A DNA stretch of 64,000 nucleotides from assembly GCA_963921275.4 (NCBI GenBank), contig OZ001293.3:4320001-4384000 (forward strand). The letters are read 5' to 3'. This DNA is from an uncultured Hormoscilla sp. (GTDB lineage Bacteria; Cyanobacteriota; Cyanobacteriia; Cyanobacteriales; Desertifilaceae). Both the position numbers and the translations under genes were made by a program. Each line of letters opens with the position of its first letter. The first letter of the stretch is position 1. A model generated the notes under the pieces. The model had not been told where the DNA came from. It worked only from the letters and a program-made list of their open reading frames with translations, and searched no databases. Below are positions 31,022 through 32,391 of this stretch, piece by piece.

Positions 31022-32391
31022 GGGGTGCATCTCAGTTAGGCGATGAGTATATTTACTCAGCACAAGTGGATTTACTGAGTCTGATTAGGCAACTAATGCG
31101 CCATTCAGGTAGGCACAGCGATGCTTCAACACCTACGGTCCGCGGACGGCCCGAAAAATCGGCACATTCTCGGCTCGCCATTGTGCCCCCGGTAATTTCA
31201 CCCTTAACCCAATTTGTTTCACCAGGGACTCAACCCGACCAGAGCCAATCGAGTGCCGAGCTGCCTGCCCGTTCGCGCAGCGGCCCGACGCCAGGAGGGC
31301 TAGCCTAGTAGTCAATGATGCGCGTCTGATGGTGCTTCAAGTAGTTGATCAACCCTGTGGCTCCCCGACATTGCTGTTGGCGCAGATAACTAATCGCCCT
31401 CTGGGTCTCCCCTCGCCACAGGAGTGCACGGTCCGCGGACGGCCCGAAAAATCGGATCTGCACGGTCCGCGGACGGCCCGAAAAATCGGATTGAGCCGGT
31501 GTCCCTTGCACCTTATTGGCATTTTCCATTAGGTGATACCAATCGAGCACTTCGATCCGTTGTTCTGGTGTCCCGATACCACTGAAAATGTTCCACACCC
31601 CATCATGACCATCTCCGAGACCGGTGAACTGCGCCCCGAGGGGCTGGGCATTCACCCACTCAAGCAGCCCTTGATTATCCTTGAAGAAAGCCACACTGCC
31701 TTGCTCATGGACATTTAAGGCTTTGTATTCTCGCCACTCACCAGGTTGACCCTCCACGGTCCGCGGACGGCCCGAAAAATCGGTACGAAGGCGAATCATG
31801 CCGCCATCCAAGCTGAGCTCCTGAATCGGTTCAGCTATCTCTACCTCAGACCAGTCCTCTCGTTGAACAAAGCGTTGGAGCGTACTGTGGGAGATGCTCA
31901 CCCCAGTCAGCATCGCGAGATCTTTTACGGTCCGCGGACGGCCCGAAAAATCGGCTCTCTGGTAAGAGGCATTGGCACTGACGACCCAACAACATTTTTC
32001 CACATACGGACTCCAACGAGTTCCCGGTTTAACTTGCAGTTGTTGGGCTTGAGCAGTGGTGAGGGTTAGTTTGCCCAGGATACTGGTCAGGGTGCGCTGT
32101 TTTCCGGTGCGGCGGGAAGTCGCCGTGTTGATAAAAAAATTCCTAGTTGAGGCCAGACGTGTTCTTGGGCAAGCGCACGAACGTTTTTCTCAATGCCTTC
32201 AAGGGTGGTGAGTTCAGTGGGGTCGGCTTCCTGGTAGAGAATCGCGGCAATCGCGTCAAGATGTTGCTGGAGTTCAGCCTGCTTTTGGGAGTTCATGGGT
32301 CAAGGGTGGTCAACAGTGCCTAAATTATGTACCGTTTTGAGGGATACAAGCACTAAGTATAATTACTCATCGCCTAACTGAGATGTACCCC
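31022..32391 (-). mobile_element. ISKra4 family element carrying multiple micro-insertions
   Basis: 28-bp IRs GGGGTRCATCTCAGTTAGGCGATGAGTA; 7-bp TSD TCTTTAT; LDGG, LGDGHDG, LDWYHL, IGSGRVES. Confidence 0.9.

Follow-up and report, generated by a model that had tools for sequence, protein, structure and literature searches.

The insertion sequence and its five 24-nt units

The DNA analysed here, called the window below, is a stretch of 64 000 nucleotides from an uncultured Hormoscilla sp. (contig OZ001293.3, positions 4 320 001 to 4 384 000 of the forward strand); all positions are counted from its first nucleotide. At 31022..32391 it contains an insertion sequence (IS) of the ISKra4 family with a broken transposase gene on the minus strand, and this IS carries five identical copies of a 24-nt unit, which are the subject of this work. 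The IS is 1370 bp long as found and 1250 bp long without the five units. It is bounded by terminal inverted repeats of 39 nt (31022-31060 and 32353-32391; 87% complementarity) and flanked by a 7-bp target-site duplication, TCTTTAT, read from the sequence (left copy 31015..31021, right copy 32392-32398).

An earlier reading of the same sequence, referred to below as the original prediction, had assigned the element to ISKra4. The NCBIfam model NF033572 (ISKra4) supports this, together with the inverted repeats, the duplication and the homologues. It matches two fragments of the transposase (E = 3.9e-31, 108.6 bits, and E = 7.7e-08), the score staying under the cut-off of 205 bits since the gene is split; no Pfam model was found for this transposase. 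The nearest named homologues are ISKra4 transposases. One of them, P0004, has an identity of 67% to the transposase with the units in place and of 80% once they are removed. A protein search for relatives gave 239 sequences at E ≤ 1e-5 among 404 candidates, 14 of which were aligned. At the DNA level, a single weak match was found among plasmids (Kovacikia, 69% identity over 11% of the query), and there is no further copy of the IS in the window or in the 113 listed unit-bearing loci described below.

Comparison with the homologues by tblastn places the coding segments of the transposase at 32296-32132, 32138-31308 and 31267-31088, all on the minus strand. The reading frame shifts at an A7/T7 run (32133..32139), at about homologue residue 54. 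An in-frame TAG (31305..31307, minus strand) gives DY* where the homologues and P0001, an open reading frame (ORF) discussed below, have DYQ (Gln). An extra insertion of 31 nt (31271..31301, plus strand), unrelated to the 24-nt unit, also shifts the frame; P0001 encodes it as well (ASPPGVGPLRER). This copy of the IS is dead for reasons beyond the units as well, namely the frameshift, the TAG codon and the 31-nt insertion. The 30-mer GCGCAGCGGCCCGACGCCAGGAGGGCTAGC, which overlaps this insertion at 31275-31304, is also present at 18782-18811, and this recurrence assigns the 31-nt insertion to a second small-repeat family.

The 24-nt unit, ACGGTCCGCGGACGGCCCGAAAAA, begins with ACGG and ends with AAAAA in the form found here (A-type); a T-initial variant, beginning with TCGG, is described below. 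All copies are on the plus strand, and each lies directly 5' of a TCGG. Read on the sense strand, copy 1 (31135..31158, before TCGG 31159-31162) encodes the peptide IFRAVRGP, and its junction creates a TAG immediately after this peptide. Copy 2 (31428..31451, before TCGG 31452-31455) encodes FFGPSADR. Copies 3 (31462..31485), 4 (31756..31779) and 5 (31927..31950), which precede TCGG at 31486-31489, 31780-31783 and 31951-31954, all encode DFSGRPRT. The inserts thus occupy three codon phases, and all six reading frames of the unit, read from the sequence, are open.

A search allowing up to three mismatches gave these five copies only, all exact, and the expectation from 100 dinucleotide shuffles of the window is 0.00. 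The string common to the five copies is 28 nt long and starts at 31135, 31428, 31462, 31756 and 31927. Neither its reverse complement nor its longer sub-motifs nor a partial core occur elsewhere in the window on either strand. The number, positions and common orientation of the copies, their absence from the rest of the window, the different codon phases and the presence of a palindrome, all reported in the original prediction, are therefore confirmed.

The palindrome is the 10-nt sequence GTCCGCGGAC, for which nothing related was found in the literature. Predicted hairpins of the unit are weak, with stems of 3–6 bp, and the unit folds no better than shuffled sequences (z from -0.04 to -1.22); no compensatory base pairs were seen among the variants compared. 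The unit has no match among plasmid sequences. An Rfam search of 30900-32500 identified no family, the best hit (mir-M7, 24 bits against a cut-off of 91 bits) being a sub-threshold chance match. Among the papers listed for Hormoscilla together with repeats or transposases, none deals with small repeats in its title or in the opening of its abstract.

Copies 2 and 3 start 34 nt apart, and their TCGG sites are 10 nt apart in the empty IS. A 34-nt tandem duplication was considered for this pair and rejected: excision leaves a gapless QSEQIRALLW, and copies 2 and 3 therefore represent two insertions.

Insertion register

Two registers for the excision of 24 nt were compared against insert-free homologous proteins (tblastn, seven reference homologues). 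In the original prediction the target was CCG or CCGT, all five copies reading CCG...CCGT on the sense strand, and the T was thought to have come with the element and to have overwritten the base after CCG. This register leaves ACGG on the plus strand (CCGT on the sense strand); three of the junctions then encode Val, and the one at 31135 becomes a TAG.

Removal of ACGGTCCGCGGACGGCCCGAAAAA leaves ^TCGG on the plus strand and CCGA^ on the sense strand, where the caret marks the point of insertion. The resulting junctions are RAE|KD for copy 5, RTE|EG for copy 4 (RTE|EGQP, identical to P0004), QSE|QIR|ALLW for copies 3 and 2, and NVPK|VLKH for copy 1 (ENVPK|VLKH, as in P0004 and in another homologue, P0033). 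The homologues read RAE-E/Q-D, RTEEGQP, (L/G)-E/D/S-QIRALLW and ENVPKVLKH at these places. All seven reference homologues score equally or higher in this register in each aligned segment, with 0 gaps; identity is 80.4% versus 79.6% over residues 54-298 of P0004 and 96.2% versus 94.2% over the C-terminus of P0033. Thirteen of the 14 aligned homologues have no eight-residue insert wherever the site is covered, and only P0001 has inserts.

Removal of 24 nt thus does restore a continuous transposase sequence, as originally proposed, but with the register moved. The junction given as RT|VEG is RTEEG in the homologues, and the codon expected at 31135 is not CAG (CCG CAG, ENVPQVL) but AAG (CCG AAG, Pro-Lys), so that no base need have been overwritten; the apparent overwriting results from the register that was chosen. 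The target is TCGG (sense CCGA), and comparison with the proteins indicates that all five sites are clean 24-nt insertions directly 5' of a pre-existing TCGG, that is, 3' of CCGA on the sense strand.

A dispersed repeat of Hormoscilla genomes

Genomes were scanned with an internal 20-mer of the unit; the figures given here and below refer to the matches listed and are lower bounds. At least 113 loci (numbered L001 onwards) contain the 20-mer, and 111 of those listed are from four Hormoscilla metagenome-assembled genomes (MAGs). Loci L014 (Obscuribacterales) and L032 (Marmoricola) were dropped as chance matches: they share the core and one adjoining base only (21 nt) and the flanks of the family are absent. 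There are at least 124 non-redundant cyanobacterial copies with the exact 20-nt core, at least 119 of them outside the window. By source, 68 copies are from SP12CHS1, 30 from GUM202, 15 from GM7CHS1pb, six from a sediment bin and five from the window. At least 15 further, degenerate copies are present in the listed Hormoscilla loci. The HisZ protein encoded in the window has 95% identity to its counterpart in Hormoscilla sp. SP5CHS1.

The copies can be divided into two main types. T-type units (65 of 124) start with TCGG and are preceded by (G)CGA. The bases upstream of these 65 copies are A (63 copies), G (62), C (57) and G (45), a context that resembles the first HIP1 half-site; HIP1 is the palindrome GCGATCGC of cyanobacteria. 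A-type units (57 of 124, including all five of the window) begin with ACGG and have a pyrimidine upstream in 55 cases. On the right side, the flank is TCGG in 91 of the 124 copies, TCGA in nine, TCAG in eight, TCGC in six and another sequence in 10. Immediately 5' of the 91 occupied TCGG sites, the base is A 45 times (40 times as part of CGA), C 26 times, T 20 times and never G; at 2446 unoccupied TCGG sites of the same DNA it is A in 938, T in 548, G in 506 and C in 454. Whether a unit starts with A or with T tracks the base upstream of the target.

Both genic and intergenic positions are represented among the listed copies. Of the 124, 70 lie inside a stop-free frame of 150 codons or more, the unit having the same sense as the frame in 41 cases and the opposite sense in 29. 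Of 61 distinct frames, 47 were scanned and 35 match Pfam families. They include aspartate kinase, DNA polymerase I, DnaX, Dxs and LdpA, as well as GH57, CoxB, RbcX and CpeS. Since 24 is a multiple of three and all six frames are open, an insertion adds eight residues and leaves the gene unbroken, and units are common in coding sequence.

Two arrangements of neighbouring units may be recorded here. One site in the aspartate kinase gene has a single unit in SP12CHS1 and two head-to-tail units with a 24-nt period in GUM202 (L010 versus L035). In L003, units at 2551 and 2585 are 34 nt apart from start to start, a spacing equal to that of copies 2 and 3 of the window.

Filled and empty sites

Junction probes were used to find unit-bearing and unit-free versions of the same sites among the unit-bearing loci. 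There are six filled/empty comparisons between Hormoscilla species, and nine insertion sites are occupied in two species. A clean insertion of 24 nt, 5' of TCGG or TCAG and with no target duplication, is seen in four of the five A-type comparisons: the orthologous pairs L113/L049, L003/L076 and L011/L078 and the paralogous pair L022/L039. For the T-type pair L076/L003, the empty site is GCGATCGG. The shared sites, together with the filled/empty polymorphism, indicate that both old and recent insertions exist.

We are highly confident that the repeat is a small dispersed insertion module, 24 nt in length, of the Hormoscilla sponge-symbiont cyanobacteria, and, taken jointly with this, that it inserts precisely, with no target duplication, directly 5' of TCGG and less often of TCAG, TCGA or TCGC.

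Clustering in the insertion sequence

After excision of the units, the plus strand of the IS has eight TCGG sites, six of them preceded by a pyrimidine (YTCGG). Five of these six are filled, the only unoccupied one being at 31170..31173 (plus strand). The minus strand has seven TCGG sites, three of them YTCGG, and none is filled. Outside the IS, the window contains 468 TCGG and 215 YTCGG sites, none of them filled, and the other IS fragments and repeats of the window contain no unit. The difference between the IS and the rest of the window is highly significant (Fisher test; YTCGG, 5/9 versus 0/215, p = 2.8e-8; TCGG, p = 1.4e-8). The location of all five insertions on one strand is less so (p = 0.048 for six versus three sites, p = 0.019 for eight versus seven). 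In the listed MAG loci, 70 copies have complete flanks, and 18 of these lie no more than 1.4 kb from another copy. Moderate clustering is general, and one-strand saturation is special to this IS.

The ORF P0001 is 99% identical to the transposase of the IS. It extends over four of the five insertion sites and has the insert at each of them, one insert differing by a change from Ser to Thr. The 31-nt insertion is present too, and Gln stands in place of the TAG stop. P0001 belongs to a 90%-identity cluster of nine member sequences from one contig of 6 879 066 nt, a length shared by the contig that encodes the HisZ protein of the window, and is a second copy of this IS in the same chromosome. Since the inserts are shared, at least four of them predate the last duplication of the IS, and the saturation belongs to the IS lineage and not to one copy.

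The striking clustering noted in the original prediction is thus far beyond chance, and two other parts of that description have to be modified. The inserts are not confined to a single ISKra4 copy, at least two copies being involved, and the phenomenon is more than local, the unit being dispersed throughout the genus.

Possible mechanisms of insertion

The account that we favour combines the dispersed 24-nt module with local copying guided by short homology, and we consider it, as a whole, probable. New copies of the unit would be templated from existing copies. A first copy in the IS would have spread locally into neighbouring TCGG sites of the same strand, giving the cluster. The most likely process would be a copy-in dependent on short homology, by template switching or gene conversion, in which TCGG would serve as the entry homology and the flank of the donor (TCGC-like, or purine-rich on the sense strand) as the exit homology. 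Such a use of the donor flank would account for the correlation between the subtype and the upstream base. The copy-in mechanism, taken by itself, is put forward tentatively.

Several observations weigh against this account or parts of it. The source genome is represented by the window and P0001, the window is not among the listed loci, and the dispersal was counted in four other Hormoscilla MAGs. The empty sites of the IS are read at the protein level only, from the homologues. In the fifth A-type comparison, between L101 (SP12CHS1, filled) and L019 (GM7CHS1pb, empty), the empty site is ACGG and not TCGG, which may reflect a different register, a base substitution or a footprint that remained when the unit was excised between its CGG repeats. 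In the T-type pair L078/L011 the site reads TCGC when empty, and TCGG is found on both sides when it is filled. A change of the junction base, an excision footprint and an ordinary substitution look alike at these two sites. Neighbouring copies in the listed MAG loci have the same orientation in 11 cases and the opposite orientation in 14, so same-strand local copying is not a general rule. Finally, the copy-in step is one that we infer, template switching to distant loci would have to rely on a very short microhomology of at most four bases, and the accumulation in the IS could reflect gene conversion among many IS copies.

The most probable alternative, although we regard it as rather unlikely, is a non-autonomous element of the REP or IS200/IS605 kind, which would be mobilized in the form of single-stranded DNA by a tyrosine (HUH) transposase whose gene lies elsewhere. 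Insertion would then take place 3' of CCGA on the sense strand, the end of the unit being CCGT or CCGA, and an internal TCGG by the hairpin could pair with the target. The absence of target duplication and the position next to a fixed tetranucleotide agree with this, as do the short palindrome and the tract CCGAAAAATCGG, which can pair the unit with its target; occupancy of one strand of the IS would fit a single-stranded target. However, the 56 ORFs of the window that were scanned include no Y1 transposase domain, the hairpins are no better than those of shuffled sequences, and the mixed orientation of neighbouring copies argues against strict targeting of the lagging strand. The link between the first base of the unit and the base upstream of the target is also left unexplained.

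Gene conversion, by which single insertions in different members of the IS family would have been merged into one lineage with no burst of local hopping, appears improbable. In its favour, the insert-bearing ORF is part of the nine-member cluster from one contig, and the intact 7-bp duplication indicates that the IS arrived by transposition. On the other hand, other IS fragments and repeats of the window are free of the unit, and neither the occupancy of one strand nor the identity of the five copies as A-type is explained.

An RNA intermediate, followed by reverse transcription and recombination into DNA, may be considered by analogy, since Elhai et al. reportedly proposed one in 2008 for the small dispersed repeats (SDRs) of Nostoc. 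The five copies of the IS share one orientation relative to the transposase transcript, as this would predict, but units in other genes are found in both orientations (41 and 29 of the 70 listed), and there is no reverse transcriptase among the 56 ORFs scanned. We consider this explanation quite unlikely. An equally low probability is given to a coupling between unit insertion and the IS life cycle, for example through a single-stranded or exposed transposition intermediate or a cis-acting activity. If this were true, one strand of the IS lineage would have been filled at nearly all of its TCGG sites while the surrounding chromosome was left untouched, and the 24-nt module would be a marker of transposition intermediates or possibly an agent of IS inactivation.

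The model of the original prediction, a local copy-in at CCG in which the unit supplies the T itself and replaces the base that follows CCG, is very doubtful. Apart from the sense-strand reading of the five copies, it finds some agreement in the orthologous empty site L019, where ACGG is the complement of CCGT, and in the C-to-G difference at the junction of the T-type pair L078/L011. It is opposed by the junction residues of the homologues (K, E, E, E and R), which fit an empty CCGA followed by the native base, whereas its own register gives Val three times and a stop, and by the empty sites ^TCGG or ^TCAG in four of the five A-type comparisons at the DNA level. An artefact of assembly or sequencing, or a repeat native to the transposase coding sequence, for which the perfect identity of the five copies and nothing else speaks, is practically out of the question, as the unit is present in four independently assembled MAGs, nine site pairs are shared between species, the second IS copy has a diverged insert and 13 of 14 homologues are free of inserts.

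We know of no established explanation for the movement of elements of about 20–30 nt, and the Nostoc SDRs have, to our knowledge, been without a mechanism since 2008. The Hormoscilla unit makes the question of mobility testable, because it combines a sharply defined target (^TCGG, never after G) with an insert of exactly 24 nt and no duplication. Further handles on the mechanism are the two subtypes, whose first base tracks the base upstream of the target, and the filled and empty orthologous sites of closely related genomes. Its main value lies in these clean sites together with the extreme local saturation of the IS, a lineage that, nearly saturated with the unit, still spread to at least two copies. 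As predicted from the genes, dozens of housekeeping proteins of these symbionts would carry an eight-residue insert.

Other repeats and elements of the window

A palindromic repeat of about 45 nt (CGTGTCC.GAGA.GCCCACCC ... GGGTGGGC.CTC^TCGGACACG) often hosts the unit in the Hormoscilla MAGs. It was seen in the window at about 11520-11630 and in L001, L003, L009, L022, L034, L039, L045, L092 and L105. Its copies in L039 and in the window (GGGTGGGCACTC^TCGG at 11607) are empty.

A tandem array with a period of 21 nt (ATGGCTGCGCCACGCTACGCGA) and single copies of its repeat, which end with GCGATC (HIP1-like), are found at 39429-39541, 51637-51662, 62772-62796 and 63063-63086. Similar strings (for example ...CGCTACGCGATCGG) stand before several of the T-type units of the MAG loci. 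Heptamer tandem repeats (GTTAGTT and CTGACCG/CTGACCA) and a G-rich array of 8–9-nt units are located at 23206-23263, 61263-61326, 61345-61392 and 30166-30244; the G-rich array lies a short distance before the IS region, on its upstream side.

The window also has a longer repeat, of about 880 nt, in three near-identical copies (12727-13600, 42035-42908, inverted, and 48605-49478) and one partial copy (1-179); L061 contains a stretch with about 80% identity to part of this repeat. Other transposase genes or fragments, of the IS4/IS5 DDE and ISAZ013 types, are found at 15080-15904, 23631-24218, 24507-25145, 32744-33013 and 36868-37575, and carry no unit. There are also split genes, with pieces of a histidine kinase at 36107-39324 and a ClpB fragment (7314-8033) beside a complete Clp ATPase. 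IS elements and pseudogenes seem to be abundant in this region.

Comparison with known small elements

The unit differs from miniature inverted-repeat transposable elements in the lack of duplication at its filled/empty pairs, and 24 nt is too short for inverted repeats of the size found in such elements. Elements of the IS200/IS605 family insert without target duplication beside a specific tetranucleotide that stays outside the element. The unit likewise inserts without duplication beside a fixed tetranucleotide, but it is far smaller than these elements and their miniatures and has a single weak hairpin.

REP sequences are short palindromic repeats thought to be mobilized in trans by RAYT proteins, and a few of their families are also found inside ORFs (PMC3733652). 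They are described there as imperfect palindromes with stems of 6–13 bp and a conserved, unpaired terminal tag (GTAG or CGTC, followed by a stem of 8–9 bp), and as mostly extragenic. The unit is similarly short, contains a palindrome and occurs inside ORFs. Compared with REPs and REPINs as described there, its stems are shorter (3–6 bp) and lack a GTAG or CGTC tag, 70 of the 124 listed units lie in frames of at least 150 codons, and there is no fixed organization as inverted dimers. No RAYT gene was found among the 56 ORFs of the window that were scanned.

Rickettsia palindromic elements (RPEs) are inserted in frame inside ORFs that probably still encode functional proteins (PMC3733652). The 24-nt unit also sits in frame within ORFs, and its hosts belong to a different phylum. 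RPE-1 is much longer than the unit, and we know of no defined TCGG target for RPEs.

The closest likeness is to the SDRs of Nostoc punctiforme and its relatives, of which Elhai et al. are said to have described SDR1-8 in 2008, and among them above all to SDR5. The unit is, like these, dispersed, multi-copy and homogeneous in sequence, and is found within and between genes. It is also very small, its 24 nt falling within the range of about 21–27 nt of SDRs; SDR5 has 21 nt (PMC13756078). No SDR-like repeat has been reported outside the Nostocaceae (PMC5861425), a family to which Hormoscilla does not belong. Other differences concern the target. Exclusive insertion into HIP1 (GCGATCGC), characteristic of SDR5, is not seen here, the target being TCGG; an intact HIP1 would require TCGC on the right of the unit, which is the case for only seven of the 65 listed T-type copies, and the second subtype (57 of 124 listed copies) is at Y^TCGG with no HIP1 context. 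The saturation of an IS also sets the unit apart. Among the shared properties, the filled/empty polymorphism of the unit implies mobility in recent evolutionary time, some of its copies are nested in another small palindromic repeat, and its sites are in part HIP1-like. The resemblance to Nostoc SDRs suggested in the original prediction is thus borne out by size, copy number, polymorphism and a partial association with HIP1, and on these properties, rather than on its sequence, the unit may be regarded as a relative of the Nostoc SDRs outside the Nostocaceae.

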